NCBI RefSeq assembly: GCF_004010195.1
Contig: NC_057753.1
Location: forward strand, 3,627,514 to 3,691,513
From: Chiloscyllium plagiosum
Lineage: Eukaryota
Direction: 5' to 3'
DNA length: 64,000 bases
Shown here: positions 1 through 63,976 of the stretch, piece after piece
Position numbering within the stretch: position 1 is the first letter of the stretch
Layout: each line of letters begins with the position of its first letter
Translations under genes and position numbers: made by a program
The notes under the pieces: generated by a model
Seen by the model: only the letters and a program-made list of their open reading frames with translations
The model's database searches: none
What the model was told of the DNA's origin: nothing

Positions 1-2
1 GT

Positions 3-476
3 ACCTCACAGGCTTGGGCCGCATATGATTTGATTCGTTCCATTCTGGTCCCCTGTCTTCCATTCATTCTGATTTTACTGCTCAATGCTCTGACAGTCAG
101 ACATATTTTAGCGGCCAATCGAGCACGCAGAAGACTTCGTGTCCTGAGCAATGGAGAGGATCGGACTGATCCAGAGTTGGAAAAACGGAAGAAGTCCATT
201 ATCTTACTCTTTGGCATTTCAGGCAGTTTTGTTCTGTTGTATTCAGTATATTTTGCAACAGTGCTCTATGTCCGAATTGCGAAAGTTACTTATTACTCAG
301 TTTCTAACTCTCGCAAGTCATCCTTTATCCTGGAGGAAACCGGGTATATGCTTCAGTTTCTGAGTTCCTGCATAAATCCGTTTATTTATGCGGGGACCCA
401 GAATAAATTCAGAGACGAGTTAAAGAATGGGTTAAGATATCCACAGAGATTGCTTGTACAACTTTTAAAGTGCTGA
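3..476 (+). CDS. GPR139-like: GPR139-like class A GPCR, copy 1, 3' part of coding exon 2 (TM5-TM7 and C-tail); 5' part lies outside the window
   Basis: Open frame from base 3 (TSQAWAAYDLIRSIL...PCLPFILILLLNALTVRHIL...DPELEKRKKSIILLF...GYMLQFLSSCINPFIYAGTQNKFRDEL) to TGA 474-476; aligns colinearly with copies 2-4; NPxxY present. Confidence 0.85.
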   Translation, partial: TSQAWAAYDLIRSILVPCLPFILILLLNALTVRHILAANRARRRLRVLSNGEDRTDPELEKRKKSIILLFGISGSFVLLYSVYFATVLYVRIAKVTYYSVSNSRKSSFILEETGYMLQFLSSCINPFIYAGTQNKFRDELKNGLRYPQRLLVQLLKC

Positions 477-1701
477 TACTGCAGGCACAATGGCTGAAAG
501 CTTCCAATTGTTTATCCTCATTCAGCCACGCAGTCAGGTGCCACCAAATGGTTATTCAGCGCCACCTCTTTCTCCATACAAGGCGGTCTAAATTGGCCAG
601 AAATTCACCTGGTGCTTTACCGAGTGAAAAAAAAAGAGTCTGGTCAACCTCGCCAAGTTCGAATTATGTATAGATTTAGGAACAGCCTTTCTTCTGCCTT
701 CTGCAAAGTCTCATTTGTCAATGTCCCTTTCCGGTTATTTATGCCTTCGAATGGAAATCTGGCTGATTGTGTAGCATAGCAGCGCCAACGCCACTGGTGT
801 TTCGTCAGAGAGTCTGACCTGCTCATTTGCCTGGAGAGGACTTAATTTACCAAGCTTTACAATAGTGAATTCCATATTTAAGTGCTATGATCAGACAAAC
901 TTCAATGGAACTGAACATCGGGATTTGCTGTGGAGTAATAACGCACCAAAATGCTTGATCACCACGTGCTCTACTGGTAATAAAAAAATGATAATTCTGA
1001 TGTAAATGTAATTATGTCCTACTTCCGTGCTGCTCAGTGACACAAGTTGGTAACGGAGTCGAAAAGAATAAGATGTTTAGAGATGTGAAAATTAGCATTC
1101 CATATTAACATACAATCTTGAGATACAATTTCACATGGCTGCTGTTAATTGTCTTCTAAATCTATGATTAGTTTACACAAAGTGATAGTTCAAGCCATCT
1201 ATATTTGCTTTCACATGCAATGTAGATAGCTGGCATTTCAATTTAAATTCAAAATTTATCCAAGATACATCAGAATGAATTCTCAGTTTAGCAGAGTAAA
1301 ATATGCCATTAATCAAAGCTATTGATAAAATCACCACAGTACAATATCGTTCAACAGAGCTTTGAGCAGTCCAGCAGAATGGGAAGATATGGTTCATGTG
1401 TGGGGCCGCGCAATGACATGGATAATGAAAGAAAGTTTAGAAGGGTTTCTCACATTGTTCTGACATTGTTACAGATGATGTAAACAGATTCCATGTGGGA
1501 AGGGGAAGAGGAAGATTTATAAACTGTCGTGCATTCACAAAAGTCGGTTTCACTAACTTGTGGAATGTACATAAATCAGTTCACACAGTCCTCAAGCCCA
1601 CCGAGATAGCAGACTGCCGGTAGGACAAGGCTGTGTTCGGCTTTCCTGCTTTGCATAGAACTTCATTCACACCTTCAACTTGCCAAATCACAGTGTTACA
1701 A

Positions 1702-2047
1702 GGGAAGGCGAGTGCCTCATGCTATTACCACTTGACTGTTAATCCAGAGACCCGGATAATGCTCTGAGCACATTGGTTCGAAATAATGCAAGAAATTCAC
1801 AGCACACATTGTAATTTGACTTCAACATTTTTTTTTCTGGCATTAAGAGTCTATTGACAACGAATCCATTGCAGATTGCTCAATTAAAAACAAAAACTCC
1901 ATCTTGATGACCTTAGAGAAAGAAAACTTAGTCCTTCACTGCTCTTGCACACATGTGGCTATTAACTGCCTTCTGGACAATTTTGGATTAGCAATAAATG
2001 CTGGCCTAGGCAGCGACGTCCTCAGCCCATGCATGATTTGTTTTAAA
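1702..2047 (+). mobile_element. Degraded tRNA-derived SINE (second shark SINE family); inverted paralog at ~28030-28332
   Basis: tRNA-like head (...gactgttaatccagagaccc...ggttcgaa) and 3' gcaataaatgctggcctaggcagcgacg...cccatg; a second head fragment at ~2128-2200. Confidence 0.55.
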
Positions 2048-3149
2048 TCTTGAATATTCCAAGATACAAGACCTCCTCGATAGTAGTGACGTGCACACAT
2101 ATTGATAGCGTGGGGAGGTAATTTCATCAGGAGAGGCGATGGCTTGTTAAGGTGGAGACCTAGATAATGTTCTGGGGACTTGGGTTAGAGGCTGATTACC
2201 GTCGCTGTTCAACTGAATGTACCACATTTGGTGAGACTTTCAGTCCGCCCGGTAAAGGCTGGTTCCTACCAACCTCCCTTTGTGGTTGTAAAGTAGTCCT
2301 TTAGCAATTTCATCGAAAGCCTTATCCTAAAATGGTTTTGCCATAACTCATTCAACTAGATCATTAAAACCCCAAAGTCATCCAGGAATACTGAATGCTT
2401 CCTGCTGATGGTCTTGCTCAGATCCTGAACGCAACTCGAAAAGGAACATCAGTCCTTGGAAAAGTGCCTAAAATAACATTTGATCAAAATTGCTACAAAT
2501 AATTAAGCGTGCACAGATGCAATACTAATTTATTAGCTTCAATTACTTGATTTCCTATTAAAATAGTTACTTGCTTCAGAAAATGCACAGCTTAAACTAA
2601 TTAGATATGTTCAAAAAAGTACGTCTCATGTCCTTTCACAAGTCGAGGATCCCATCACCACAATGGAGCTCTGCATTAATTTCCTTGACAGCAGTCACAA
2701 ACACACTCGAATGTTAAGCCTAATTAAAGTCCAAACTTTTTTTGTTCTTGGAGGTCAGAAATAATTCAAAGTATCTTCGGAAAACAGTCTGTTCTCGCGC
2801 ACATTTTCATTCTTCAACAATTGCTTATTTTATGCCTATTTAATGCCTTAATGATATGGTTTGAAGGTGTCATTTTTGATATCATGCATTACTACAACTT
2901 GGCAAATCGTATATTTGTTGAGAGATGCACAGGGCAGAAAGGCATCTGCGGCCAATCTCGGCAAGCTTTCAGTATTGATCATTAGTCAATCCATATGACA
3001 ACGGCTCAGTGGCAATATGATTCCTTACCATTCTGAGACTGTACATTTACTTTAGTACAATTGCTTACAGTGTGCCAATTCCAGTTGAATACAGATGTGT
3101 GCTGTCGGCTTAGAGCAACATTCTCACATCTACGTTCAGTGCGAGTTTG

Positions 3150-4510
3150 TTCAGGTCTCTGGTTTCATATCCAAATACGGTGAGTCGACATATGTTTCAG
3201 ATGTAAAAGAAGGAAATGTAAGAGGTTGGGGAGTTGCATTAATGGTAAAGGAGCATCTGAAGGCTGCGCTGAGGGAGCATATATCAGAGCACCAGATAAC
3301 GAGGCAATATAGGTAGAACTCAGGAATAGGAAATATGAAATCACGATGCTGAGCCTCCCAACAGTCAGTGAGACACGAAGGAGATACTACATAGATATAT
3401 TTTGGAAAGATGTAAAAACAGCATGATTATTGTAGAGAGTGATATTAACTTCCTCTATCGTAACTAGGACTCACTTTGTGCTCATAGCTAGATTGCGATT
3501 GAATTTGTGAGGACCATTCAGGAGGGTTTCTTGACACAGTATGTCAACAGTACAACCAGGTTAAGGGGTTATGCTCGCCTGGTTTTTGGGAAATAAGCTC
3601 GGCCAGGTGAGTGAAGTTTCAGTGGGGGAGAATTTCTTGCAGTGTGAACATAATACCGTGAGATTTAAGGTACTCATAGGTAGGTAAAACAGCAGTTATC
3701 GGGTGAAAGTGTTAAATTGGGGAAGGTGAACTACAACAACATTAGGCAGGAATTGGAGAATGTTGCTTGACGTCTATTGTTTGAAGGTAAATCCACTTCT
3801 GGCATGTTGGAGTATTCCAAACGCCAGGAGTGGCACATTCTTGAGAGAATGAAAGATTAGTATGGCAAGTTACGTGAACCTTAGATGATGAGGCATGTCA
3901 TGATCTTGGTCAAAAAGGAAAAAGAAGCAGACATAAGGAGCCGGAGGATGGGAACAGATGAAACTGTTGAATTATATCAGAAAAGTGGGAAAGAACTTAC
4001 ATTAAATAATCGGAAGGGCTAAAATGGTCATGAAAAGTCGTTATCAAACAGGATTAAGCAGAATCCCAAATCTACCTGCACATGTATGAAAAGCAACAGG
4101 GTAGTCAGGGAAAGTGTTGGCCCACTTAAGAACAAAGGAGGGAATCTACTTGTGGAGCCAGAAGAGGTAGCTGAGGTCCTAAACGAATACGCTGTCTTGG
4201 TACTCACTAAAGGAAAGCACTTGTTGTAGGATGATCTCAGGGAACGGAGTGTCGAATTTCTAAGCCAAGTCGCTCTTAATAAGAAAAAGGTGTTGTGCAT
4301 CTTTAAAAAGTATTAAACTGGATGGGTGGCCGGGTCTTCATGAGAGCTATCCCAGAATATTGAGGGAGGCAAGACAAGACGTTGCTGGAACATTGATTGA
4401 CATCTTTGGCCACAGATGATGTCCCAGGGGACTGAAGAGCAGTGAATAAAGGCACATGGTTTCATAAGGATAGAAGTAATAATCCAAAAATCTACTGTCC
4501 TGTGAGTCTC
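3150..4510 (+). mobile_element. Degraded CR1 LINE ORF2 fragment (AP-endonuclease and linker)
   Basis: Decayed motifs GGGVALMVKE, VELRNRK, GDxNFP, NPKxxxxYxKSKRVVRExVGPLK; many stops and frameshifts. Confidence 0.8.
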
Positions 4511-4686
4511 TTGTGAATACATTAGCAATACATCTGCGGTTTCCTCACTCCCAAAAATAATTTCACTTCACTGTAAGAAGCCAATTTCTACATCAGTTAT
4601 TCTCTTCCTTTTCATGTGTTTACGTACACCCTAATAGTTTGTTTTTGTTTTAAGATATTCTTCTTCAGATTACTTTCATTGCTACT

Positions 4687-4980
4687 GGGTAGTATAGTGG
4701 CTCAGTGGTTAGCACTGCTGCCTTACATAAGCAGGGTCCCAGGTGCGATTCCAGCCTTGGGCGACTGTCTACGTAGAGTTTGCAACTTTTTCCCCGTGTC
4801 TGTGTGGGTTTCCTCCCACAGTCCAAAGATGTGCAGGTCTGGTGAATTGGCTATGCGAAATTGTCAATAGTGTTGGATGCATTAGTCAGAGGGAAATGGG
4901 TCTGGGTCGGTTACTCTCCCGAGGGTCGGTGTGGACTTGTTGGGCCTGTTTCCACACTGTAGGGAAATATAATCAAATCA
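4687..4980 (+). mobile_element. HE1/V-SINE, diverged copy
   Basis: gtggctcagtggttagcactgctgcct head, V-domain gtagagtttgca...ccccgtgtctgtgtgggtttcctcccacagtccaaagatgtgcagg, tail gggcctgtttccacactgta. Confidence 0.85.
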
Positions 4981-5455
4981 GTTTTACAATGGTGTTGAAT
5001 TCTTCATGACCCTTTATTAGATTGTAAATTGCACACGATCCCGAACAAATGCATTCATCTGTGACGTTGTTTCCAAAGTGTGAATTCGGAGTAGAAGGGG
5101 AAATATCTACTTGCAGCAAAGTTCCAAGTAAACATTGAGTTCTCGAGAATAACAGGGAAAGGGGAGAGCAGAAATGCTGCATATCGAGTGGCCAACTGGC
5201 ATTGTGCCAAGCAGCAGAGTAATGCCACAAATCACAGTGCGATAGGAGTTCAGGTAAAATCAACTGGTTTGAGAGTGATCTCAGTGAATTAGCAATGATT
5301 CTGAGATTCTATGGCAATGGAAAGGTAATTGGGGAAATGACAAGAATCGATTACAGTTTTCATGCTAGAACTTGGGAGCCCTAATTGGTTTTTGGCAACT
5401 CTGCTGATGCACAAACATGTTCCCAGTGAAGAACAACATTTGTGATTTCCGTGTA

Positions 5456-6184
5456 CAGAGGCACCTCGATTATCCGAATACCAATTATGCCAAAAATCAG
5501 ATTATCCATAGATCTCCAGGTCCTGATAGAAACATTAAATCAAAGACGTGTTTCCAACAGTGATCGCGTCTTTTGTTGACCGTGATTAAACAGGCACCAT
5601 CTCCAAATGACTGACCTCCCACTCTTTCTCTCTCCCCACACCTTCTCTGGAGTTCTACAGAGGGGAGTACCATAACCCCCCGTCCCCAGATTATCTCTCC
5701 ACCATTGTCCTGCACAGGGCAAACGTGGAACGTGTCTAAACGTTACAGTAAAACGTTGCTGTGGTTTTGTGCATGTGTGTGCGCGCGCACGCATGTGTGC
5801 GCTATTTGAAAACTTACCTCCCAAAGGCAGTTGCAGCAGCACTCTTGTACTTGATGTAGAGTCCGACTGCCCCGGAGACGGGTTGGGGACAGACGAGGGG
5901 CGGTGTTAGACGGGGTTGGGGGCAGGTTGGAGCGAGGGCCTGTGTTGGACAGGGTTGGGGGCGGGGCAGGCGGGGGTGGTTTTGGACGGGGTTATGGGTG
6001 GGGGCGTGGACGGGGTTCTGGAGGCGGGCTGAGGGCGATGTTCGGGGTGGGGTCTCCTGAGTGGAGAGCAGACATTAAAAGCTCCGTGCTCCAGAGGTAA
6101 AGCATTTAATTGATTAACCGAATAATCGATTATCCGAACGAAATAGTTCCTGCCCATCTCGTTCAGATAATCAAGGTTCCCCTA
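5456..6184. mobile_element. Non-autonomous Tc1/mariner-pogo (Tigger-like) DNA transposon (MITE), ~730 bp
   Basis: TIR cagaggcacctcgattatccgaa (5456-5478) vs ttcagataatcaaggttccccta (6162-6184), 18/23 complementary; TA at 5454-55 and 6185-86; subterminal gattatcc(g)a repeats; no transposase ORF. Confidence 0.75.
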
Positions 6185-10170: not shown

Positions 10171-10179
10171 GGGAAGCTT

Positions 10180-14168: not shown

Positions 14169-14216
14169 ACTAATTAACTCCCTGGAGCCTGTATTGCATA
14201 TGCAACCATGTATAAA
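14169..14216 (+). promoter_or_regulatory. Putative core promoter of copy 2: homeodomain site TAATTAA (14171-77), O/E-like CTCCCTGGAG (14178-87), TATAAA (14211-16)
   Basis: 23-bp ACTAATTAACTCCCTGGAGCCTG identical in copy 3; TATA 57 bp upstream of the ATG. Confidence 0.55.
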
Positions 14217-14267: not shown

Positions 14268-16808
14268 ATGCATGAAATACCAAGAGGTTTAGTTTTTGCC
14301 ATTTACTATCCAGTCCTTGCAGTTATTGGTCTTCCAGGTAAATGTTGTTAGTTTAAACTGCAGAGTTATTGTTTAGCTGCATCAGTTCTCCTGTTTTACC
14401 AGTAACACTTCACCACATCACGAATATTGTTTCTGCTATTCAATAGGATATAATGTTTGACTTTAACATTGTGATGTGTGCCGTGGAAGGTGCATACTCT
14501 TTGGATGACATTTCTATCACCTTAAAGGCAATAATAGTAGAAATGACTTACGATGGCAATCCAGTTCAATTATAGTATTGGTAACAATATATTAGTTAAA
14601 TTACCGAGCAATTAATATCTTGCAAAGTGGATACATTGCAGCTTTGATACTTTTTCAGCTGACTTTTCATGTGATCATTGCAATTTCGTTTCTTTTCCAC
14701 CATCGTTCAAACGTACATATTGATTTGTTATGCAATTTTCTTGGAAAGTAAGGGGCAATACGTATTGATTTATCATTGCTTGAGTGGCTTGAACTGTTGA
14801 ATAATTTTTATCCACATTTAATGACTGATTTTATTTGATAGGGAACAATTTCTTTTCGAAATGTTCAAAGATGTGTAACAATATTCTATTTGCCTTTTAA
14901 GCGAAGATTGGAATTTGCCACTGATGCACAGAGCACAGTTGTTTTTCTTTCATTCACTGGTGCTCGCATTCTCCTGGTGGCTGTTCTTGATGGCTCTGAT
15001 ATGATGATTGCCGATGTGGAATTTCCACCAAACTCCCAGATATTGCAATGTCTTAGACTGTTCCTAGTTTTGTTGTTCTCCCAATATTGAATGAATCTCT
15101 AGACTTTTAGCATCAGTTGTATTGCAATTACAAGGTTTAATTTTGTCAATGCAAATGAGAAAGGAGACGTTATTTATTTGATGGTGAAATGAAACACTGA
15201 TGAAATGGTACACTTTAGGTTGGTCTTTCGCTGAACAAATTCTCATCACCAGACAGTTCCAATTGTTTATATCAACAACAGAAATGACACGTGACTCTCA
15301 CATGAACAGTTTTATTATTGAACCAATCCCAGAATGAAGTTGGTGAGTTGCATATTGCAAGTTTGTTTCCAATGTAATATTCAAACGTTCAATGCATGCT
15401 TTTCCAACAGTGGAAACCATAACATGAACTCATCGAAACAGCCACGTTTGATCCAAAATTAGACATAATCCATGTTTTTCGTGGTTGTCAAATTATTGTT
15501 GGTGTTTTGCAGACGACCTCCTTCAACATATCCTATGTTTCATTGTTGGTATGATTTTGATTTACTGCAGTATTTATATGCTTGTGATATATTACATTTA
15601 TTTTTAAAGTTTATTCTTGGTCTGAGATTTTTGCCAACTAAATATAGTGATGAATTGTTGCTGGGTGAATTGTTGCTGTCCACGAAGATTTCTAAATACT
15701 TTTCCTTGTAGCATCATGAATTTGTTTTAGAGTTCATCTACGCTTCAATGTTTAATTTAAAAGTCAATTGTTCATCACGTAAGGAATGATGTCCCAATGA
15801 TGGTTCCCTTCTCAAATCTTGCATCTTCTCAAAAAATCCTGTAAAATTACAAACTTGATTGTGGTCCGAGCCACAAACACTCTGATTGCAAATCACGCTC
15901 TATTTTTCTTACAGCTAATGTAGCAGTGATTACAATCCTGTCTCGAAGAAACTGTGGTCTCTCAAGATGCATTGCTTACTACCTGGTGTCAATTGCAGTG
16001 ACAGATCTCCTCGTCATGGTCACAGCTGTGATTTTAAATCGGATTGCTGGCATTTATTTCCCATCCAGTTTCCTTTCGATCACACCAGTATGCAGTTTCC
16101 GTGCTGCATTAAATATGGCAGTCATTGACAACTCTGCCTGGTTAACAGTCGCTTTTACCTTTGATCGATTTGTGGCTATATCTTGCCAGAACCTGAAAGT
16201 AAAATATTGCACCAAGAAGGTGGCAGCATGGGTGATAGGAGTAGTGTCTACTCTTTGCTGCATGAAAAACATTTTCATATATTTTGAATTTGAACCTAAG
16301 TATGTAAGTAACGATGTACCCTGGCTGTGTAACATAAAGGATATATGTTATACATCACCTGCTTGGGCTGCATATGACTGGATCCGTACTATTCTAAATC
16401 CTAATTTTACTATTGAACGCGCTGACTGTGAGACGCATTGTCTTGGCCAATAGAGCCCGTAGGAGACTCCAGCTTCAGAAAAATGGAGAGACTGAATGTG
16501 ACCCAGAGATGGAGAAGCGGAGAAAGTCCATTATTTTACTCTTTGCCATCTCGGGCAGTTTCATTCTCTTGTATGTGTTATTTTTCATTAATATTCTCTA
16601 TGTTCGAATTGCAAATATTACTTATTCCTCAGGATCCACTTTGCGTAGTTCCACATTTTATTTGGAGCAAAGTGGATATATGCTTCAGTTATTAAGTTCC
16701 TGCATCAATCCATTTATATATGCTGTGACGCAGAGCAAAATTAGAGATGAATTAAAGAATGGAGTGAGATTTTCATTAAACCTATTCATTAAATTACTTA
16801 AATATTGA
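14268..16808 (+). pseudogene. GPR139-like: GPR139-like GPCR copy 2, probable pseudogene: exon 1 14268-14337, intron 14338-15914, exon 2 15915-16808 with frameshift at ~16400
   Basis: Exon 1 MHEIPRGLVFAIYYPVLAVIGLP-G|gtaaat; acceptor ttttcttacag|CT; relative to copy 3, 17 nt (CGTGTCTACCTTTCATT) are missing in TM5, giving a premature stop at 16451-16453; the remaining C-terminal half is intact in the other frame. Confidence 0.85.
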
Positions 16809-21599: not shown

Positions 21600-24500
21600 G
21601 TAACATCATGCCTTTATCCAGCTACCAAAATTACTTCGTTTGATCCTTTCAAACTCAATGTGAATTTGACCAGGTTCCTCGTTAGATTCTTGATACGTTG
21701 TCTCGAATCTCCTGGCACAGGAGCACATGGACTTGAGATGATCGCTTCACCTTCTCATACGCTATAGATTCCTCCTCTGATCGTGATGCCAATACCTCAC
21801 GAGTTGTGATTAAGAGTTTTGTTTGCATCAACAAAACCTTCATCGCCACTGGTCACTGCATTTTTTTCGTCAACTTTTCAAATGAGTTGAAAAAGGTATC
21901 CACGTCCTTTTCATCAAAATTAGTCAATGTTTGAATATAATTAAAACAAATTCTCACCACTGCATTGGCTATCACAGGTTAGCGCCTCTTCACTGTCTGC
22001 TGCACTAGGCTTACTTTCAGCCTTCATCAACATCCTTTTAAGCTGACTTTCCTGTCTCAGTGCCAATTTCAGAAGTTCAAACTCTATCTCTTTCTTCCTG
22101 TCGTCTCTTTCCTATTCTTATTCTTCTCGCTTTCGTTCTTTTTGTCTGCTAAAGCGATTCGTTATTTTCTTCTCCTTCCTGTGTTCCAGTCTTTCTGTCC
22201 TTTTCCTTTTGTTCAGCTGAAAACCTTCTTCGCATTTCTATATCTTCGAACATGGCACTTCTCTCCCTTTCTTTATCTTCTAACTCCTGCTGCCTCACTT
22301 GAAATTTAAAACTTTCCATCTCCACTGTGGTTGGTTATTTATCCGATTGACCCAAGCACTTAACCGATGCCATTACATTTCACCTTTCATTCTGTCCCTG
22401 GTTAAATCCAATTCTAACCTTTTTCCTCATCCTGCGTCGTTCTAAACTGCCTTAGCAAATTTGGGAAGCAGCTTCAAACGCCAGAACATCTTGAGCAATG
22501 TTCAGAGCCCTTTCCAAAGCTCTAACTATCTTTCAAGCACATTTAAACGTTGGGCTATTTCGGTAATAACCACAAAGATTTCCCGTGACATCGGCAATTC
22601 CAGTTCCAGCCTGAATGCGAATTCCAGTAGTTTTGTATTGTTCACCTTTTGTAAAACCCCCAAAGTCACTTCTTCCATCCCAGAAACCTCGCAATGACTG
22701 ACAAAGTCATTGCTATCACAGTCATATATAAACGAAATAAAATCAACACCAAGAGCAAAAGACACTAACACTGCCTTCCAGTCCAGAAACCCTAATACCA
22801 AATCAGAAAAGTAGAACAAGTCCAGACTGAGGCCCCAGTCTGTTTTGGACAAGCCAGAACCCCCTCAATACAGCTAAAGAAGGCATCTCACACCCTACAT
22901 TTTCTATTTGTTTTTGGTAGGTGTATGGTGGGTATTGAAGGAGTGATGCAGCTGCTCAAAAGCCCTCAAATTTAAACAAAAAAGAGTACCCAATTAAACG
23001 CAAACGAAAGAGAACAGAATAGAGAATAACTTAATCTAATCGGAAAAAAAATTGAAGCTATTCCAAATTCCTGCAACAGACCCCATAAACACACCCTTGA
23101 CAAATATGTAAAATCAGACACACGTCCTTCGAGGACAATAGACAATAGACAATAGGTGCAGGAGTAGGCCATTCAGCCCTTCGAGCCTGCACCGCCATTC
23201 AATATAATCATGGCTGATCATTCCTAATTAGTATCCTGTTCCTGCCTTATCTCCATAACCCTTGATTCCACTATCTTTGAGAGCTCTATCCAACTCTTTC
23301 TTAAATGAATCCAGGGAGTCGGCCTCCACTGCCCTCTGGGGCAGAGCATTCCACACAACCACCACACTTTGCATGAAGAAGTTTCTCCTGAGCTCTGTCC
23401 CAAATGGTCTACCCCGTATTTTTAAGCTGTGTCCTCTGGTTCGGCACTCATCCATTAGTGGAAATATGTTTCCTATTGCCAGAGTGTCCAATCCTTTCAT
23501 AATCTTATACGTCTCAATCAGATCCCCTCTCAGTCTTCGAAACTCAAGGGTATACAAGCCCAGTCGCTTCAGTCTTTCAGTGTAAGGTAATCCTGCCATT
23601 CCAGGAATTGACCTCGTGAATCTACGCTGCATTCCCTCAATAGCCAGAATGTCTTTTCTCAAATTTGGAGACCAGAACTGCACACAGTACTCCAGGTGTG
23701 GTCTCACCAGGGCCCTGTACAGCTGCAGAAGCACCTCTTTGCTTCTATACTCAATTCCTCTTGTTATGGAGGCCAGCATGCTATTAGCCTTCTTCACTAC
23801 CTGCTGTACCTGCATGCTTGCCTTCATTGACTGGTGTACAAGAACACGCAGATCTATCTGTACTGCCCCTTTACATAAATTGATTCCATTGAGGTAGTAG
23901 TCTGCCTTCCTGTTCTTGCCACCAAAGTGGATAACCATACATTTATCCACATTAAACTGCATCTGCCATGCATCTGCCCACTCACTTAATTTGTTCAGGT
24001 CAACCTGTAATCTCCTAACATCCTCATCACATTTCGCCCTGCCACCCAGCTTTGTATCATCAGCAAATTTGCTAATGTTATTGCTGATACCATCTTCTAT
24101 ATCATTAACATATATTGTATAAAGCTGCGGTCCCAGCACGGATCCCTGTGGTACCCCACTGGTCACTGCCTGCCATTCCAAAATGGAGCCGTTTATCACT
24201 ACCCTTTGTTTCCTATTAGCCAACCAATTGTCAATCCAATCTAGTACTTTGCCCCCAATACCGTGCGCCCTAACTTTACTCACTAACCTCCTGTGTGGGA
24301 CTTTATCAAAAGCTTTCTGAAAGTCCAGGTACACTACATCTACTGGATCTCCCTCGTCCAACTTCAGAGTTACATCTTCAAAAAATTCACGAAGATTAGT
24401 CAAGCATGATTTCCCCTTCATAAATCCATGCTGACTCTGTCCTATCCTGTTACTACTATCCAGATGTGCAGTAATTTCATCCTTTATAATAGACTCCAGC

Positions 24501-24936
24501 ATCTTTCCCACCACTGAGGTCAGACTAACTGGTCTATAATTACCTGCTTTCTCTCGCTCACCTTTCTTAAAAAGTGGTATAACATTAGCCACCCTCCAAT
24601 CCTCAGGAACCGACCCCGAATCTATTGAACTCTGAGTGAACGATGACAGGGAGAACTCGAATGGGATCACCTTCCACTGTAGCTATTTCTTTGGAATTCC
24701 CAGTTGAAACTGACCAACAGCTCTCAATGGCCAGAGAGTTAATGCTAATGCTGATCACAGAAAAGCTGTGCTGGGCGAACTGGCCACTTCTCTTTCATCG
24801 TACATGTGCATTTATTTAACTTAACATTTTCCACAAGTAGATAAACCAAGGCATCTCGGAACCCACGACTTTATGAACCCTCTTTAAAATATTATCAAGG
24901 ACAACGTAACCTTTTTGCAGGATCAGCACTGCCACA
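21600..24936 (-). mobile_element. Truncated Gypsy (Gmr1-like) LTR element: 5' LTR 24936-22841 (split by a CR1 insertion), degenerate tRNA-Pro PBS ~22821-22840, decayed gag 22800-21600
   Basis: LTR termini TG...CA resembling the LTR at 44450-45076; PBS-like actggggcctcagtctgga; gag remnants FDEKDVDTFFNSFEK...P...LLMQTKL and RQR..NL...PGQ..IEFERIK. Confidence 0.7.
23134..24634 (-). mobile_element. Young 5'-truncated CR1 LINE with uninterrupted RT and C-terminal ORF (23228-24670 track ORF) and (tgtctat)n tail
   Basis: About 470 stop-free codons: [71 protein letters not shown]; tail gacaata x3 at 23134-23155. Confidence 0.95.
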
Positions 24937-32946: not shown

Positions 32947-33857
32947 TCAATACTTAAATATATTAATAAATATGTTCAAAGCAAATCTCCCTCCATTCTT
33001 TAACTCATCTCTAATTTTGCTCTGCGGCACAGCATAAATGAATGGGTTGATGCAGGAACTCAATAACTGTAGCATGTATCCCGTTTGCTCCAAATAAAAC
33101 ATGGAATAACGTGATGTAGATCCTGAGGAATAAGTGATATTCGCAGCTCGAACATAGAGAATATTTAGGAAAAATAGCAAATATAACAGATTGAAGGTGC
33201 CCGAAATGGAAAAGAGCAAAATAATGGACTTTCTCCGCTTCTCCATCTCTGGGTCACACTGATTCTCTCCATTGTTCTGAATCTGAAGTGTCCTACGGGT
33301 TCTATTAGCCGAGAGAATGCGTCTGATGGTCAGCACATTCAGTAGTAAAATTAGAATGAAAGGTAGACACGGATTTAGAATAGAACGGATCCAGTCATAT
33401 GCAGCCCAAGCAGATGATGTATAATATATTTCCTTTAAGCTACAAAACCAGGGTATACTGTTAATTTCATACCTAGGTTCCAATACAAAATATAAGAAAC
33501 TGTTTTTCATGCAGCACAGAGTAGAGACTACCCCTATCACCCACGCTGCCACCTTCTTAGTGCAATAATTTGCTTTCAGGTTCTGGCACGATATAGCTAC
33601 AAATCGATCAAAGGTAAAAGCGATGGTTAACCAGGCGGAGTTGTCAATAACTGCCATATTTAGTGCAGTGCGAAAACTGCACACTGGTGTGATAGAAAGG
33701 AAACTGGATGGGAAATAAATCCCGACAATCCGATTTAAAATTACAGCTGTGACCATGACCAAGAGATCTGTCACTGCCATTGACACCAAGTAGTACATGA
33801 TGCACCTCGATAGACCACAGGTGTTTTGAGACAGGATTGCAACCACTGCCAGATTAG
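32947..33857 (-). CDS. GPR139-like: GPR139-like GPCR copy 3, exon 2 (gene 35664-32947, 326 aa, intact)
   Basis: Acceptor ctttcttacag|CT AAT; open frame with DLL (TM2), TPVC, FTFDRF, PWFC, PCLPF, NPFIY; stop at 32947-32949. Confidence 0.9.
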
Positions 33858-35594: not shown

Positions 35595-35664
35595 CTGGAA
35601 GACCAATAGCTGCAAGGACTGGATAGTAAATGGCAAAGACCAATCCTTTTGGTATCTCATGCAT
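35595..35664 (-). CDS. GPR139-like: GPR139-like GPCR copy 3, exon 1 (70 nt)
   Basis: MHEIPKGLVFAIYYPVLAAIGLP-G|gttaaa; same 70-nt phase-1 exon as copies 2 and 4. Confidence 0.85.
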
Positions 35665-35714: not shown

Positions 35715-35762
35715 TTTATACAGGGTGATATATGCATTGCAGGCTCCAGGGAGTTAATTAGT
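35715..35762 (-). promoter_or_regulatory. Putative core promoter of copy 3: TAATTAA + CTCCCTGGAG + TATAAA
   Basis: Identical 23-mer to copy 2 with the same 40-bp TAATTA-to-TATA spacing; TATA 56 bp upstream of the ATG. Confidence 0.55.
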
Positions 35763-42379: not shown

Positions 42380-43826
42380 CACTGTCCGCATGAGTCGTAC
42401 CGGAGGATTGGAAGAAGGCAAACGCTGTTCCCCCTTTCAAGAGGGGTAATAGGGAAATCCCGGGTGATCACAAACAAATCAATCTTACGTCTGTGGTCAG
42501 AAAAGTTTTGGAAAGAATTCTGAGGGTTAGGATCTATGACTATTTGGCAAAGCATAGCGTGATTAAAGGCAGTCGGCATAGCTTGGTGAGGAGCAGGTCA
42601 TGCCTCACAAAACTTATCGAGTTCTTCGAGGAGGTGACAAGACAGGTCGACGAAGGTCGAGCAGTGGATGTGATGCATATGGACTTCAGCAAGGCATTTG
42701 ATACAGTTCCCCATGATAGGCTCATTCATAATGCCAGGAAGTATGGGATACAGGGAGATTTGGCTATCTGGATTCAGAATTGTTTGCTGACAGAAGGCAG
42801 AGAGTGGTTGGAGATGGAAAGTATTCTGCCTGGAGGTCAGTATTGAGTGGGGTCCCGCAGGGCTCTCTTCTTGGGACTCTGCTCGTCGTAGTTTTTATAA
42901 ATGCCTTGGACGAAGAGGGTGAGGGGTTGGTTAGTAAATTTGCAGCTGACACAAAGGTCGGAGGTGTCATCGATAGTATCAGGGCTATTACAGGCTGCAG
43001 CGCGACATAGACAGGATGCAGAGCTGGGCTGAGAAATTGCAGGATAAATGTGAAATGATGCATTTTGGAAGGTCGAACTCGAATGCTGAATATAGGATTA
43101 AAGACAGGATTCTTGATAGTGTGGAGGAACAGGGGAGCTGGGTGTGCAAGTGCATAGGTCCTTCAAAGTTGCCACCCAAGTGGACAGGATTGTTAAGGAA
43201 GCATATGGTGTTTTGGCTTTCATTAACAGGGAGATTGAGTTTAAGAGCCGTGAGGTTTTGCTACAGCTCTACAAGTCCCTAGTGAGACCACACTTGGAAT
43301 ATTGTGTCCAGTTCTGGTTGCCTTACTATAGGGAAGATATAGAGGCTTTGGAGAGAGTGCAAAGAAGATTTACCAGGATGCTGCCTGGACTTGCCTTATG
43401 AAAAAGGTTGAATAAGCTCGGACTTTTCTCTCTGGAGAGGAGGAGGGAGAGAGGAGACCTGATCGAGGTATACAAGTAATGAGAGGAATAGATAGACTCA
43501 ATAGCCAGAGTCTTTTCCCCAGGGCAAGATTGACTGGTACGAGGGGTCATAGTTTTAAGATATTAGGGGAAAGGTATAGAGGAGACGTCAGAGTTAGGTT
43601 CTTTATGCAGAGAGTTGTAAATGCATGAATTGCGTTGCCAGTGGTGGTGGTGGAAGCAGAGTCATTAGGGACATTTAAGCGACTGCTAGACAGGCACATG
43701 GAAAGCAGTAAGTTGAGAGGTGTGTAGGTAAAGTAACTATAATTTATATTAGGAGTAAATCTCGGCACAACGATGTAGGCCAAAGGGCCTGTACAGTGCT
43801 GTACTTTTCCATGTTCTATGTTCTAT
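42380..43826 (+). mobile_element. CR1 RT plus 3' UTR, frameshifted
   Basis: SCLTKLIEFFEEVT..VDEGRAVDV..MDFSKAFD, GVPQGSLLG, KFAADTK, RPHLEYCVQFW; tail atgttctatgttctatg. Confidence 0.9.
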
Positions 43827-53255: not shown

Positions 53256-54496
53256 AAAGCATCCATAAGGTCCAGGCAGCTACGAACAGAAGGGGCCTTG
53301 GAGGAATATCGGGAGAGTAGGATCCATCTTAAACAAGGAGTTGAGCGGGCTAAATGGGGTCATGAAATAACTTCAGTAAACAGAATTAAAGAGAATCCCA
53401 AGGCCTTTTATTCATATATAATGAGCAAATGAGAAACTACAGAAAGGGTCATTGCACTAAAGGATAAGGAAGGACGTTGTGCGTCGAACCCTGAGAAAAT
53501 GGAAGAGATTCTGAAAGAGTACTTTGCATCAATTTTCACTGAGGAGAGGGACATGATGAATGTTGAGATTAGAGATAGAAGTTTGTTTACTCTGGATCAC
53601 TTTGACATAAGGAGGGAAGGTATGTTGGATAGGCTAAATGATATTAAGGTGGACAAATCCCCAGGATAGAGTGGGATCTCTCTCAGGTTGCTGAGGGAGG
53701 TGAGAGAGGAAATAACTGGGGCCCTAACAGATACCTTTGTAGCATCTTAAACACGGTTGAGGTGCTGGAGGACTGGAGGGTTGCCAATGCTGTCCCCCTG
53801 TACAAGGAGGGTAGTAAGGATATTCCAGATAACTACAGATCAGTGAGACTGACGTCAGTGGTGGGAGAGTTGCTCGAGAAGGTACTGAGGGATAAAATAT
53901 ATTTATATTTGGAAAAGAATGGGCTTATCAGTGATAGGCAACATGGTTTTGTGCGGGGGAGGTCGTACCTTACAACTTAGTAGACTTCTTTGAGGATTTG
54001 AACAAGTTGATAGATGAAGGAAGGGCTGTAGATGTCATATGCATGTATTTTAGTAAGGCGTTTGATAAGGTTCCATGCTAAACAAATGAAGAAAGTAAAG
54101 TCACATGGTGTGCAGGATGTTCTAGCTCGATGAATAAAGAACTGGTTGAGCAACAGGAGAGAGAAAGAGAGAGAGTAGTAGTTGAACTGATTTTCTCGAA
54201 ATGGAGAAACGTGACCAGTAGTATTCCACAGGGATCACTGCTAGGGCCACTGTTGTTTGTGATATACATAAATGATCTGGATGAGGGCATTGTTGGTCTA
54301 ATCAGTAAGTTCGCAGATGACACAAAGATTGGTGGAGTAGCAGAAAACATAGGCGACTGTCAAAAAATACAGGAGAATATAGACAGACTGGAGAGTTGCG
54401 TGGAGAACTTGCAGATGGAGTTCAATCTAGGAAAATGTAAGGTGCTGCATTTTGAAAAGTCTAATTCTAGAGCGAACTATGCTGCAAATGAAAGAG

Positions 54497-54720
54497 TCAA
54501 AAGTGAGGACTGCAGATGCTGGAAACAAGAGTTTAGATCAGAGTGGGCTGGAAAAGCACAGCAGGTCAGGCAACATCCGAGGAGCAGGAAAATCGACGTT
54601 TTGGGCATAAACACTTCATCAGGAAACTTGATGAAGGGCTTTTGCCCGAAACGTCAATTTTCCTTCTCCTCGGATGCTATCTGACCTACTATGCTTTTTC
54701 GGTACCACCATGATCTAAAA
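54497..54720. mobile_element. Palindromic Penelope-derived element with ~16-bp TSD
   Basis: TSD gctg(c/t)aaatg(a/g)aagag at 54481-54496 and 54721-54736; cores ...cttcatcagg and tgatgaagggcttttgcccgaaacgtc. Confidence 0.8.
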
Positions 54721-57700: not shown

Positions 57701-58609
57701 TGAATATATCATCATTTAAGCATTCTGAATTTCACTAGCCCATGTGGAAAATATTTGTTAATTTGATTTAAATCTCAGAATGCATTATTGAATGATTTTC
57801 TCCGCAGCTGACAAAACCATACTGACCCATCTAAGTACATATTGATTTTAAGATTGTTGAACAGGATTTGTCCACACTGAACTGAATTGTGGTCAACTAT
57901 TCCTCACTGCTCTGAAGATGAACACTCTGATTTGACCTAGCTTTGATCTGGCTTTTCTTCATAGCTGAAACGCTTCATATCAAGCATTCTGACGAATAGC
58001 TTCTACATTGTCGACAAAATGCAACGACACCCTTCGTCTCGTGTAGTGACTAGAACTTTACAGAGTACTACAGCTGTGGCATAGCTAAATTGCTGTTAGG
58101 CGCCAACATAACCTCCATGCTCATATAATCTTCATCACAACTCATAAACGCAAGTGTCCTTTATGCCTTGTTATCTAGCCAAGTTATCTGTCCTGCTGTA
58201 TTCAGGGATCTGTGGACAAACATCCCAAGCTGCCTCTGTTCCACCGAGCTTCCTACACGTTGAATGTGATAGGTCTGCAATTATTTGAATCAATTTTGTA
58301 CTCACTGAACGCAGCCTCAAGGATCAAAATCTGTACATATGTATGTCATTAGTTTTTTTTAAAAAACTTGTACATTGAATTTACACGTAATGATTAGGGC
58401 ATATTGATACTGAACATGACTGTGTTGTCACCTGTTCATGGTGAGCTGGCACTCTCCACATTGATCATTAGGAGGCCCCAAGCTAAAGTCCATAGCGAAT
58501 ATTTTAATAAAGAACTGAGCCTTTATATATTAAATGCAATCATCTTAGACTGGACCTATCTGCAATAATTGCAGAAATTTTTGCATTGAAATGACTGGAA
58601 ATGGCTGAA

Positions 58610-58830
58610 CTATCGATCACAAGGGGCCATAATTTTAATGTGATTGGAGGAAGGTTTAGGAGAGATGTGAGAGGAAGGTTCTTCACACAGAGAGTTGAAT
58701 TCACTGCCAGCATTGGTAGTGGAGTCAGGCACAGTAGGGATATTTAAGCGATTCTTTGATAGGCTGGTCTTATATAAATAGTAGGAGAAAAGGTCGGCAC
58801 AACTTTAAAGGCCAAAGGACCTGGACTGCT
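58610..58830 (+). mobile_element. CR1 3' end fragment
   Basis: RGH...V.GGRFRRDVRGRFFTQRV, ggtcggcacaac...aagggcc-like 3' UTR. Confidence 0.7.
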
Positions 58831-59187
58831 GACAAAAAGCGTTTGACCGAGATCTGGAAACACGTTGCATCTCATCAGCAATTATGTGGACAGAGAAATG
58901 AGCTGAAGTGAGAAACTAATCATGTCTCCCTCAGAATATTGGTACTTATCAAATGTGGTCAACAATGAAAACCACTGCTTTGACATTGACCCATATATAG
59001 ACAGTTTCTATATCTGTGCACAATACTACTGCGACAATTTCTGGGTATTTCCTGACAGGGCCATGCTCTGTTCCCATGAAAATATAAACATTCAGTTCAA
59101 TCAAACCTTAAAACCTGCCGGGCATCAGCTGCACTAACCTGTTTTTGTAATCGCTTTAATTCATGCAAAACCAACCCAAGTTCTTAC

Positions 59188-59215
59188 TTCCCAGGAGTCC
59201 TTAATGATCTATAAC
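59188..59215 (+). promoter_or_regulatory. Putative core promoter of copy 4: O/E-like TTCCCAGGAG (59188-97), homeodomain TAATGA (59202-07), TATAAC (59210-15)
   Basis: TATA-like box 56 bp upstream of ATG 59266, the same spacing as copies 2 and 3. Confidence 0.45.
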
Positions 59216-59265
59216 AAGGACTAAATAGAGTGAAAGGTAGAATGCAGAGAAGGTCGTTGATAAAA

Positions 59266-59335
59266 ATGCACCAAGTGCCATCAGGCCTGCTGTTTGCCAT
59301 TTACTATCCCGTGATTGCAATGATCGGAGTTCCAG
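59266..59335 (+). CDS. GPR139-like: GPR139-like GPCR copy 4, exon 1 (70 nt; an in-frame ATG at 59242 could add 8 aa)
   Basis: MHQVPSGLLFAIYYPVIAMIGVP-G|gtaaaa; homologous to exon 1 of copies 2 and 3. Confidence 0.85.
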
Positions 59336-60499
59336 GTAAAATGCTGCCGATATTTGTTAACTGCAACAATTTTTACATTTTGCCAGTAGCGCATTGTACT
59401 TTCCTGATCTGCTTTATTTCATTGAATATGATGTATTGTCCTATTCACCCATTTAATACCTATATTTTACATGATATATCTTTCTTCCTATCATTTTCGT
59501 TATTTTATAGCATCAGTTTTTTACAATCGTTATAATTTCTTCGGTGTTTTTGCATATATTTCTACCAATATATGTCTAATTCATTCCACTAAACATTCTA
59601 ATTTCAGACCCTTGCAAAAAAACTCGTTATGTCGAATTTGCCAGCTTTTTGTTACACTTTGTAATTAATATTTTATCGTATTGACAGTGGACTATTCTCA
59701 CATTTACAATGCAATTAGATTTTGTTGCATTTTTGGCATGATGACAACACTTGTTCTCACAAATATTACGATTGCCTTGTGTTATAATCGATGCTATTGT
59801 GTTAGGATGCTAAACATCTGGTATGAATGTAGTTTGATCTATCAATCATAAATTTCTTGCGACTGAGTTATTACTACAGTATGACTGTGGTTCTGATGTC
59901 AGGTTGAAATATCTTTGTTGGTCAGTTTTCACACATTTCACTTAAGTGTAGTTGCCTTGTGGTATGCCCGTTGATCTTGCTGGTGAATGGAGCTATGTTA
60001 TTTGATTGCAAGTGTATGTGCAGATGCATTATCGCATTGCAATTGCTGTCAGTAATCATGACGGAATAATTTCCACAAATTAACACAGCATTGAAGTGTA
60101 CTGAACCATTAAATAATTTCCAACTGTGTAAATGTAGGGAACAAACACTATTTGGACCTCCATTTTGGCAGTTCTGCGAACTGCCTTATCGTTGCCCGTC
60201 CATGCACAGTAGTATTTGTCTGGAATTGACATCGTTTCTATTCTCAGTCTATAAAACATGTCATATTTGCAGATTGCTTCATTGAAAATTACCCAATTTT
60301 GAAGTTAGAAGTTCGACAATCGAATAATTGCTGATTTCTGGTGTAATTCTAAAGCATGAACATATTATCGTTCAGCTACTATGAAATGCAGAGAAGACAT
60401 ACATTTTCTGGTTAACAAGACATGACACGTACAATTCCACACTGGTCAACATTGGGATGAATTGGGATTGCACTGGTCGGGTGTAAAGTACGTTCAGCA

Positions 60500-61970
60500 C
60501 GATGTTCCAGGGTGGAGTATTTCAGCTTTAACGAGATACTAGGTGAGCCCGGGCTATTTTCGTTGAAGTAGAGAAGGTTGAGGAGGCATCTAATAGAGGT
60601 CGATAAGATTCTGAGGGTCACAGCTAAAGTATATGGAGAACGGCTGTTCTCATTCGTCAAAAGTCACTGAAAAGGTTGTCTTTCTAAAGCGAAAAGAGTG
60701 AACTTTCGTGTAGATTAGGGGTAATAGTTTGCACCCAGACAGCTTAGATTACTTTACAGTGTGGAAACAGGCCCTTCGGCCCAACAAGTCCACACCGACC
60801 CACCGAAGCGCAACCCACCCATACCCCTACATTTACCCCTTACCTAACACTACGGACAATTTAGCATGGCCAATTCACCTGACCTGCACATCTTCTGGGA
60901 GTCTGGAATGCATTTGCAGGAGGGTAATTAAGCGAGAAACCTCACACCTCTGAAAAGGAAGTAGACTAGCACGTAGAGCATGACAAGTATGGGAAAGTGG
61001 CACAGGGGAATGCGACAGTGCAATTTTGATGGTACAGAGTCAATGGGCTGAAAGGCTACTTCCGTACTGTATGGTCTCATGATTGAACAAATAGATCCAA
61101 TGCATAATTCCACATTTTATTCATTGCACAACGATAACTAGAAGGCTCATGATTATGGAGAGGACTTACAGAGTCACCAAATGTAAATAGATAGGTCAAA
61201 TGAATGGGTAAAGATATGACTGATGGAGACAATGTGAGAAAGTATGAACTTGATATCATTGATAGGACGAAATAGAATCGCAAGGCATGTAGGAAAATGG
61301 GAGAATTTGCAGAAAAGTCGAGTACAAGTGGATTTGTATGTCCTTTTACAGAAAAAATAAACAAAGGGTTTCCAGACACAAGATATTGAATGGTGTCTAA
61401 TATTGCTAGTGAAATGAAACTTGAACACTGTTGTTTAGCCGCAGTTATGCAGTGAAACCATATCCAGAGTTAGGTAACGCTTTAGTCTTCTTGTTTAAGA
61501 AGGGACAATATTGTGCCAGAACAGTTCATGGAACACTAATGAACGCGTGATGATTAAAGATTGTACAGCTGCAGTCTGTATTCATTGACTTCAGAAGAAT
61601 GGCAGCTAATTTTCCTGGAACATGAGAGGCACCGAGGGGACATGACTGATGAATTGTAAAATAATATTTCCTCGAGAAAAGTGGATGCTATTTAAAAATA
61701 ATGGATCCCACATCTGAGGTGGAGTTCTAACAATGTTCCCGGTTATTTCTAATAAAGGCCCCTGAATCCATGGAATTCTGGCTCCCACAGAGAGTGGTGT
61801 AGCCATGTTCTTTGAATTTTGTAATATAGTTTTGATGAACAAAAGAGGCACAGAGAAGAATGGCAGGTTGCAAAATGGATTTATTGCCACAATCAGACCA
61901 TCCATGATCCTGTTGACTAATGGATGAAGCTAAAGGGACACAGTAGTCGTTTCCCGTTCCTATACTGACA
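60500..61970 (+). mobile_element. Highly decayed CR1 3' fragments in the copy 4 intron, with a V-SINE 3' half (60744-60895, minus)
   Basis: MF..VEYF...E.LGE.GLFSL..RRLRR.LIEVDKILR; reverse SINE tail cagtgtggaaacaggcccttcggcccaac. Confidence 0.65.
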
Positions 61971-63059
61971 TATTAATTTATTTATTTCTGAGTTCGTATG
62001 ACTGCTTACGAGAGATATTATTTTCTACTCTTCGCAATTGGTAATGTCTCAGGTTGTTCACACCTTCACTATTTTATTCACATGAAGAGAGACGTCATAA
62101 CCGTTGAAACTCGCATTCACTATAAATCTTTTTATTCAAACGTTCAGTTGGGCCAACATGAATCAATTATTCTCGGTGTGTTAAGTAGCATGAAGGTTTT
62201 GCATTGCATGAAAAGGTTTTGTCAGAAGGACGCATCTTCATTGACGACATTCAGCAGTTCAGTTCCGTTCATAACACCCCCAGGGATCCTCAAGCCACCG
62301 GTACACAGTGTCACTGACACCTGACCTGAAAACTGGTAGAAACATGAAATCTTCATCCACTTTCTTCTGTTTCACAACAGTTTTGAGCAAAGTACTTTTC
62401 AACTTTTCCAACAGTGAACGGTATTAAAATAATTTATTCCAACGAAAACAATTGGCCCTCAGTAAAGTACAATCTGTGTTTGAGTTCGTTTGTACAATTT
62501 GGCAATTTCCGTTATTTCATTGCATTGATATTCTCCACATTAGGTTTTTAATGTACTATTTTCCTTGTGTATTTGATGTCTTTTGTTTTGCTTGTGATGT
62601 GAATTTGATTTCTTGTTGACCTCTGTTGGTTCCTATTAGGCTATGTTGACGTATTGTTCCATTGTTAAATTCGAAATTGGTGATAGTTTTTTTTTATTAA
62701 CGAAGGGTAACAATGGATAAAACAGGTAAATTGAGTTAGGCCAGAGATCTGCCATGATTCCAATGAAAGCCAGAACATGTTTGAGGGACTGAGTGCGCTA
62801 AACTTGTCCCCATTGTCCCATTATGCTATTTCCCTCCTTGAAGTTAAATCTTGGTTGCTATTTCAAAATCAGTAATTGTTCGATCTGAGGGTAAGGGGTA
62901 ATTGTTACCTTAATATTATGACAAAACATTGCAATTTAGCGTAGAAGACTGCGAAAGATCTCATTGTGTTGGAATTTGAAGTAATAACATCCAGTTCTCA
63001 TTCATACGCTCTCACAGCACTCTCCTACTCCTCCCTCACTCTCTGCCTCATTATTACAG

Positions 63060-63976
63060 CTAACTTTGCCGTGATCATGATTCTGTCTCGAAGCCGATGT
63101 GGTCTCACTGGGTGTATCACGTATTACCTGGTTTCTATGGCGGTGGCAGATCTTCTGGTTATGATAACAGCTGTAATATTAAACCGGATTGCTGGGATTT
63201 ATTTCTCATCCAGTTTCCTGTCGATCACACCCGTGTGCAGTGTTCGTTCCGCCCTAAATATTGCAGCAATTGACAGTTCTGCCTGGTTAACGGTAGTCTT
63301 CACCATGGATCGATTTGTATCTATTTCCTGTCAGAAGCTGAAAATAAAATACTGCACCAAGAAAATGGCATCACGCATCATAGGAACCGTGTGTATGCTC
63401 AGCTGCGTAAAAAATATCTTTATCTCCTTTCAATTGGAACCTAGATACGTAATTGACAATATACCCTGGTTCTGTAACATAAAAGATATAATTTATACCT
63501 TTCCAGCATGGATTGTCTATGCCTGGATATGCTCTATATTAACCCCTTTCCTCCCATTCATTCTGGTTTTGCTGCTCAATGCTCTGACTGTCAGACACAT
63601 TCGAGTGGCCAATAAAGCCCGTACGAGACTTCGGAACCAGAACAGTGGCGTGAATCTGATTGACCCAGAGATGGAAAAGCGGAGAAAGTCCATTGTGTTA
63701 CTCTTTGCCATCTCAGCCAGTTTCATTCTATTGTATGTGGTGTCTTTTGTAACAATGCTTTATGTCCGAATAGCAAACACAACTTATTCCTCAGGTTTAG
63801 ATAACCGCAATTTTGTATACATTCTCCAACAAAGTGGATATATGTTGCAATTATTGAGCTCCTGCATCAATCCTTTTATTTATGCTGGAACCCAGCGAAA
63901 ATTCAGAGATGAGTTCAGAAGTGGCGTTAGATGCATCCTTAGATACTTTGTCAAACTATTTCTTTTTCGCAAATAG
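63060..63976 (+). CDS. GPR139-like: GPR139-like GPCR copy 4, exon 2 (gene 59266-63976, 328 aa, intact)
   Basis: Long pyrimidine tract and ttacag|CT AAC acceptor; ADLL, TPVC, TMDRF, PWFC, PFLPF, NPFIY; TAG 63974-63976. Confidence 0.92.

Follow-up and report, generated by a model that had tools for sequence, protein, structure and literature searches.

A shark receptor gene family of about 1,500 copies, a candidate chemoreceptor repertoire of cartilaginous fishes

A stretch of 64,000 nucleotides from the genome of the shark Chiloscyllium plagiosum (contig NC_057753.1, positions 3,627,514 to 3,691,513; here called the window) holds four copies of a G protein-coupled receptor (GPCR) gene, and the question it raises is which family these genes belong to and what that family might do. 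An earlier note, made from the letters of the window, had read them as part of an expanded cluster of GPR139-like receptors and as a candidate chemosensory, amino-acid-sensing family of sharks. We find that the window genes are members of a rhodopsin-class family of about 1,500 copies that has expanded in cartilaginous fishes. On the evidence of sequence, we lean slightly toward the view that this family is an undescribed chemoreceptor repertoire.

Size, range and structure of the receptor family

We searched the shark's genome with a protein query and scored 129 candidates, each of which proved to be at least 58% identical. Counted by hand, these 129 best copies include 78 on the 15-Mb contig that carries the window and 22 that are interrupted by stops. 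We also counted motifs across the genome. A family-wide motif in exon 2, at transmembrane helix 7 (TM7) and helix 8, had 1,492 exact matches compared with 1 for the reversed-pattern control, and an independent motif in exon 1 had 1,665 compared with 0; both counts take in pseudogenes and possibly redundant unplaced contigs, and miss diverged copies. A TM7 motif narrower to the subfamily of the window genes had 182 matches compared with 0 in controls. Among motif-picked copies, 9 of 20 keep an exon-2 frame of more than 305 codons, and thus several hundred intact family genes are likely in this genome. A second subfamily, here called young, is much younger and dispersed, and its copies are nearly invariant except at a few positions (n = 34). 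They differ from the query copy by 11-17% in protein, and many lie on small unplaced contigs.

Public databases contain 792 homologous proteins at an E value of 1e-10 or better, and all 120 among the matches listed are from sharks. None of these 120 is identical to gene D of the window, the best being 71% identical, and the nearest relative of gene C among the matches listed is a carpet shark protein (P0035, 94% identical). Named distant members come from rays, skates and the chimaera Callorhinchus. Shark and ray models in RefSeq and UniRef called "probable G-protein coupled receptor 139", "capa receptor-like" and "GPR15-like" belong to the same family, so these automatic names are misleading; we found no functional or evolutionary description attached to these models.

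In the window itself, tblastn over all 64 kb with paralogue D as query found exactly four receptor copies, A, B, C and D, with 62-70% identity to D and in the strand order +, +, -, +. All are class-A GPCR paralogues; A, C and D are intact and B is frameshifted. Paralogue A is present as the 3' part of exon 2, from TM5 to the C-terminus (1..476, + strand; tblastn match 3-476), and the 5' part of this exon, a 70-nt exon 1 (L155) and the promoter motif described below lie upstream of the window; in the genome its exon 2 is without stops. Paralogue B has a 70-nt exon 1 with a phase-1 donor (14268..14337, + strand) and a pseudogenized exon 2 (15915..16808, + strand). It is an inverted duplicate of C with 85% nucleotide identity, and relative to C it has a 17-nt deletion near 16400 that shifts the frame in TM5. 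Paralogue C has a 70-nt exon 1 (35595..35664, - strand) and an open exon 2 (32947..33857, - strand), as does D (59266..59335, also 70 nt, and 63060..63976, + strand), and the open proteins are 326 aa for C and 328 aa for D. The first exons of B, C and D each end at G|GT inside TM1 and splice in phase 1 onto AG|CTAA of one large exon 2. The earlier note had described four paralogues in mixed orientation, one of them frameshifted, with a 70-nt first exon split at phase 1 in TM1. The tblastn result and the deletion in B agree with the first part of this description, and B, C and D with the second. Its picture of an expanded cluster with birth-and-death turnover is borne out by the motif counts, the clustering and the stop-bearing copies, and the genome-wide count that it proposed, at about 1,500 copies, is far above a handful.

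The Pfam profile 7tm_1 (PF00001) scored above cut-off in C, D and the fragment of A, and is the sole Pfam match of the window receptor proteins. A predicted model has seven helices with a mean confidence (predicted local distance difference test, pLDDT) of 86.8, and the cysteines of TM3 and extracellular loop (ECL) 2 are both present in 61 of 61 copies of the window subfamily. We rejected the possibility that the window receptors are odorant receptors (OR): they match PF00001 only, and a search with the OR profile (PF13853, 7tm_4) found 3 other loci, which are the OR loci of this genome.

Several further observations concern the surroundings and structure of family copies. Among the receptor genes of the window are remnants of reverse transcriptase of the long interspersed element (LINE) type (Pfam RVT_1) at 23231-24682 (- strand), 42394-42843 (+ strand) and 54082-54681 (+ strand), the first of which retains an open frame of 484 codons. 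In the intron of paralogue D (60750-60895) lies a short repeat of very high copy number, probably a short interspersed element, which has loose ends of poly(T). On contig C8, three same-strand first exons lie 5' of one exon 2 within about 100 kb (6664000-6763500), and two first exons are without an exon 2 in 130 kb (2640000-2770000; loci of the two stretches together: L189-L208, L118, L119, L070). Because the assembly is gappy here (up to 34% N), missing exons are the plain reading, although these may be alternative first exons sharing one exon 2. The C8 first exons L189, L197 and L202, probably of the young subfamily, encode an N-terminus at least about 20 residues longer than that of the window genes. 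A tandem array with a unit of about 40 bp lies 5' of exon 2 at L070:2740-4035 and is common to several young copies.

Ancestry and the ligand pocket

The same genome contains separate GPR139 (contig C21) and GPR142 (contig C24) genes, each single, and the family is 20-22% identical to the shark's own GPR139. In our main tree (28 rows, LG+G4, rooted on invertebrate receptors), the family had support of 95/93, and its sister group (100/99) comprised genes of amphibians and sturgeon. The next branches outward were a shark/coelacanth/teleost gene, a shark/teleost/lamprey gene and an amphioxus gene, followed by GPR139/142. A quick tree of 61 rows had the same shape. Forcing the family together with GPR139/142 made the tree worse by 61 log-likelihood units and was rejected by the approximately unbiased test (p-AU 2.5e-5). 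With this constrained-tree test, we reject GPR139 orthology of the family.

The sister gene is strongly conserved: in frogs, salamanders and a caecilian it is 66-74% conserved relative to the newt protein, and sturgeon and reedfish have it too. The lineage is therefore not confined to cartilaginous fishes; such a restriction holds for the expansion alone. Two word-limited searches returned no teleost or amniote member of the sister clade, with one weak teleost match at 26% that was not placed. The wider superclade is one of neuropeptide receptors, including those for MIP/sex peptide, proctolin and FMRFamide (PMC12208981), and an Atlas search returned the family's own clusters along with invertebrate FMRFamide-like clusters. 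A fold search was uninformative in that scores were similar for many peptide receptors, and GPR139 came second. The name GPR210 was proposed by Rinne et al. 2019 (PMC6504862) for three orphan subtypes near GPR139/142, found in coelacanth, gar and teleosts and without a human orthologue. Our family nests among coelacanth and teleost orphans and, by its tree position, may branch with the GPR210 group; the word "shark" is absent from the main text of that paper, and its passages on GPR210 mention no expansion. The genome also holds two more GPR139-adjacent orphan receptors with one locus each, L064 (C26) and L065 (C98156), whose orthologues are in coelacanth and teleosts and in teleosts and lamprey, respectively. 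These two are probably GPR210 subtypes.

The family does resemble GPR139/GPR142: all are class-A receptors with seven transmembrane helices in the same wider superclade, the exon-2 frame starts at the same "AN" position in TM1, and human GPR139 is the best match among solved structures by sequence (PDB 7vug, E 2e-8). Unlike GPR139 and GPR142, which are one gene each, it comprises about 1,500 copies, is separated from them in the tree, and has lost their binding residues. GPR139 binds Trp and Phe through F3.33, H5.43, W6.48, N7.38 and R6.51, and R6.51 together with N7.39 holds the amino-acid backbone (PMC5430874). We carried these positions over to the shark copies by alignment. In the window subfamily (n = 61), F3.33 is present in 16 copies, H5.43 in 3, and W6.48, R6.51 and N7.39 in none; the residues are mostly Y/F at 3.33, R at 5.43, Y at 6.48, Y/F at 7.38 and F/Y at 6.51. 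In the young subfamily, Y3.33, H5.43 and W6.48 are kept in 34 of 34 copies, and R6.51 and N7.39 are gone from all 34. Neither backbone-holding residue is thus kept in any of the 95 copies examined. Because the pocket residues are lost, the argument for amino-acid sensing that was borrowed from GPR139 fails. Of the earlier note's proposals, then, neither a GPR139-like family nor amino-acid sensing was upheld, and the phylogeny placed the family outside the GPR139/142 clade, which the note itself had listed as a refuting result.

Promoter motif, selection and expression

In window-type genes, the DNA 5' of the start codon has mostly diverged, apart from one shared island of conserved sequence. 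This island contains a composite, CTAATTA-N-CTCCC-WG-GAG, which lies 75-99 nt 5' of the ATG and consists of predicted homeodomain and EBF-like sites. The composite was found in 45 of 47 window-type promoters compared with 3 of 128 control stretches (leave-one-out matrix score of at least 10), and in 24 of the 47 a TATA-like word follows at exactly 11 nt. Identity was highest in the motif itself (0.72, at matrix-chosen sites), lower at fourfold-degenerate positions (0.51) and lowest in the flanking DNA (0.33-0.36). Genome-wide, the strict composite occurred 36 times compared with 13 in controls, and 9 of 14 occurrences followed lie before a family exon 1. In the window, the composites of B (14169..14188, + strand) and C (35743..35762, - strand) both have a matrix score of 30.6, and that of D (59179..59198, + strand), in which the homeodomain half has decayed, scores 12.6. 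A family-wide promoter motif was rejected, as the composite is specific to this subfamily.

The composite resembles one known from olfactory neurons. In mouse odorant-receptor enhancers, Lhx2 and Ebf sites lie one base apart and the Ebf half tolerates runs of pyrimidines and purines (PMC5608512, PMC11643329). Class I enhancers contain a functional Lhx2/Ebf composite, and TAAR enhancers contain it as well (PMC7804114, PMC8213717); OR promoters have homeodomain and O/E sites (PMC12547500, PMC3247230). We built a pattern of a homeodomain site, 1 nt, four pyrimidines, NN and four purines to follow the published description, and it matched 17 of 47 window-type promoters compared with 1 of 132 controls. 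The EBF half of the shark motif agrees with the Ebf probe from the OMP promoter at 9 of 10 letters (compared by eye with the published probe table), and the mouse Sfaktiria composite agrees with the shark motif in purine or pyrimidine at 17 of 20 places.

We also examined promoters of known chemoreceptors in this shark. V2R-type exons are mainly clustered on contig C13, and 18 of 20 V2R regions could be used (2 are without exon 1). A looser composite was present in 6 of 18 compared with 7 of 144 controls, and an EBF-like site in 9 of 18 compared with 22 of 144, after several patterns had been tried. These V2R promoters (L157-L176) have TATA-like boxes, and 8 of 18 have an EBF-like pyrimidine-NN-GGGA about 95-165 nt 5' of the ATG. 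The 1.5-kb flanks of the 3 shark OR genes contained no motif match, and 2 of the 3 apparently have a splice acceptor just before the ATG.

To describe selection, we applied our own codon models (M0, M1a and M2a) to intact top-scoring copies, with gene conversion and recombination uncorrected. The window-type set comprised 61 of 62 loci (1 over-long frame was dropped; exon 1 was not within 5 kb in 16 of the 62), and the young set comprised 34 of 36 (2 were dropped for a stop or a short alignment). For the window subfamily, the ratio of nonsynonymous to synonymous rates (omega) was 0.27 overall, 0.34 in the ECLs, 0.29 in the intracellular loops (ICLs) and 0.19 in the inner TM segments. In the young subfamily, omega was 0.29 in the inner TM segments. 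These values of 0.27 and 0.29 indicate that function is maintained in family copies.

The young subfamily also contains sites of predicted positive selection. M2a was better than M1a by 628 in twice log-likelihood, and 13 sites had an omega of about 10. All 13 fall in outer loops or helix tops, by the topology of the predicted model (107 of 299 columns are outer; p = 1e-6). Mean pairwise identity among the 61 members of the window subfamily was 0.46 in ECL3, 0.49 in helix 8 and the C-tail, 0.54 in TM4, 0.58 in ECL2, 0.62 in ICL3 and 0.80 in ECL1. The earlier note had described conserved TM and intracellular segments with variable ECL2 and ECL3. The two loops are indeed variable, but TM4, ICL3 and the C-tail are about equally so and ECL1 is the most conserved. 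The site-wise analysis that it proposed likewise gave a divided answer, with outward sites in the young subfamily but none in the window subfamily.

Transcripts were examined in sequencing runs, where contig depths were not taken as copy numbers. At one young-subfamily locus, run X5, a single-cell polyA library, has 17 reads with a poly(A) tail that starts about 24 nt 3' of an ATTAAA in the genome and is non-templated, the genome having no A-run at that place. An exon of the same locus is also covered by contigs of run X7. We conclude that part of the family is transcribed at a low level. For the region of gene D (59100-64000), nearly all reads of runs X5, X7 and X1 fall on the intronic repeat and 2 are partial matches at a conserved spot, which is no evidence either way. 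Run X6 had no matching reads in this region or at the young-subfamily locus. One X7 contig joins unrelated upstream sequence to an exon-2 acceptor (L088:1498), and may represent either an alternative 5' exon or a chimera.

Candidate functions and their significance

We propose that a conserved orphan receptor, distinct from GPR139, multiplied in the chondrichthyan stem. The window subfamily would then have gained a compact homeodomain/EBF/TATA promoter permitting expression in olfactory-type sensory neurons, where a homeodomain factor (Lhx2-like) and an EBF factor may sit side by side at each promoter. Use could be sparse, with one receptor per cell, and variation around the outer pocket would tune copies to different ligands, for which peptides or other organic compounds carried in water are better candidates than free Trp or Phe. 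Like the OR, TAAR, V1R and V2R repertoires, the family forms large clusters with pseudogenes, has a short N-terminus and a homeodomain plus EBF-like motif near the start, and includes one subfamily diversified outward (PMC5608512, PMC12547500). It differs from them in its unrelated lineage, in a coding intron in TM1 and in having the composite at promoters rather than enhancers, and its expression in sensory cells is a prediction. The chemoreceptor repertoire of the earlier note thus gains indirect support from the promoter motif of the window subfamily and from outward selection in the other subfamily, but loses closeness to GPR139 and amino-acid sensing. A more specific version, which we hold tentatively and would rate somewhat below even, is that the family is a fifth olfactory receptor family of sharks and rays, independently evolved and with at least 1,000 genes, the size of the rodent OR family; it would have arisen from an orphan lineage of neuropeptide receptors and come under the Lhx2/EBF programme of olfactory neurons.

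Several results weigh against a chemoreceptor repertoire. In the window subfamily no outward-facing site is under positive selection: the ECLs have an omega of 0.34, and the 4 sites selected lie on the intracellular side. The selected sites of the young subfamily also have a synonymous rate raised 3.4-fold. The pairwise ratio of nonsynonymous to synonymous differences (pN/pS) is 1.15-1.28 in loops compared with 0.31 elsewhere, for regions chosen after the data were seen, and the selection test is our own implementation in which gene conversion is uncontrolled. The only transcripts seen are of the young subfamily and come from a run of unspecified tissue, X5, in which 279 of 13 million reads map to the locus and a part of these is antisense or intronic. 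The top-50 olfactory list of catshark contains no GPCR (PMC11979771), and the mouse composite marks enhancers, not promoters (PMC12547500). On the matrix of the shark motif it reaches only -1.4, within the best 0.2% of words in the window. The strict composite is in 0 of 18 shark V2R promoters, and no composite lies near any of the first exons located for other subfamilies, the largest included. An E-box (CAGCTG) lies 133-157 nt 5' of the ATG in 22 of 47 window-type promoters, and both EBF and E-box sites are classic elements of B cells as well.

These last sites suit an explanation that we consider unlikely, though deserving of attention, in which the family is a polymorphic repertoire of immune or barrier sensors on leukocytes, mast cells or B cells that detect microbial or damage peptides. 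EBF plus E-box is a B-lineage promoter code and window-type promoters have both motifs, the outward hypervariable sites of the young subfamily would suit an arms race, and the transcripts come from a single-cell library not known as olfactory. In rodents, the MRGPR and FPR families are lineage-specific expansions of peptide-receptor-like GPCRs that serve as xenobiotic or pathogen sensors in neurons or immune cells. Those families are of a different clade and have tens of copies, whereas the shark family has more than 1,000, and about 1,500 copies is far above any known immune GPCR family. In addition, a TAATTA homeodomain site fixed beside the EBF site matches the published olfactory composite. 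On the side of this explanation, cartilaginous fishes lack MAS1 and its relatives (PMC8455134).

The narrower version in the earlier note, GPR139-type sensors of free amino acids, we regard as improbable. GPR139 is the best solved-structure match, and the young subfamily retains an aromatic pocket like that of GPR139 in Y3.33, H5.43 and W6.48. However, the family falls outside the GPR139/142 clade, all 95 copies have lost R6.51 and N7.39, and of the 61 window-subfamily copies all lack W6.48 and 58 lack H5.43. Some 1,500 receptors would hardly be needed for twenty amino acids, and teleosts reportedly detect amino acids with V2R/OlfC receptors (PMC9018814). We give as little weight to a diversified neuropeptide-receptor or cell-identity repertoire with non-sensory roles in brain, gut or gonad. 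Lhx2 and EBF are active in many neurons, the sister gene is strongly conserved in amphibians, and the superclade is that of neuropeptide receptors (PMC12208981); massive birth-and-death and outward diversification, however, would be unexpected for a few endogenous ligands. Least probable is mostly passive amplification, that is, segmental duplication of a few functional genes in a repeat-rich genome with a count inflated by assembly redundancy. About half of the motif-picked copies are broken, many young copies are on small unplaced contigs, and the C8 first exons are often without a nearby exon 2. Against this, inner helices and the promoter motif are under purifying selection, the protein difference of young copies from the query is too much for alleles, and the expansion is common to many shark and ray genomes. 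We consider this explanation largely refuted already.

We found no paper on the expansion, with most subscription journals outside the reach of our search. Passages of three shark genome papers contain no "GPR" gene names (PMC11979771, PMC8455134, PMC10620051), and the main text of a GPR139 review lacks the word "shark" (PMC12208981). In their cited passages, a survey of shark olfaction covers OR, TAAR, V1R and V2R alone and explains keen smell by very small receptor repertoires (PMC10116579), and a paucity of GPCRs in cartilaginous fishes has been noted (PMC8455134); both surveys considered known families only. The genes were already catalogued under automatic names, and what is new here is the sister lineage, the pocket test, the selection contrast, the promoter motif and the poly(A) reads. 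The family has about 1,500 copies, runs from chimaera to rays and has been hidden by wrong automatic naming; it is probably their largest GPCR family, regardless of the tissue in which it serves. The promoter motif makes the sensory idea cheaply testable, and the conserved sister gene in Xenopus offers a laboratory handle on the ancestral role. If the olfactory reading is true, the view of a shark nose run by a few dozen V2Rs would be overturned.

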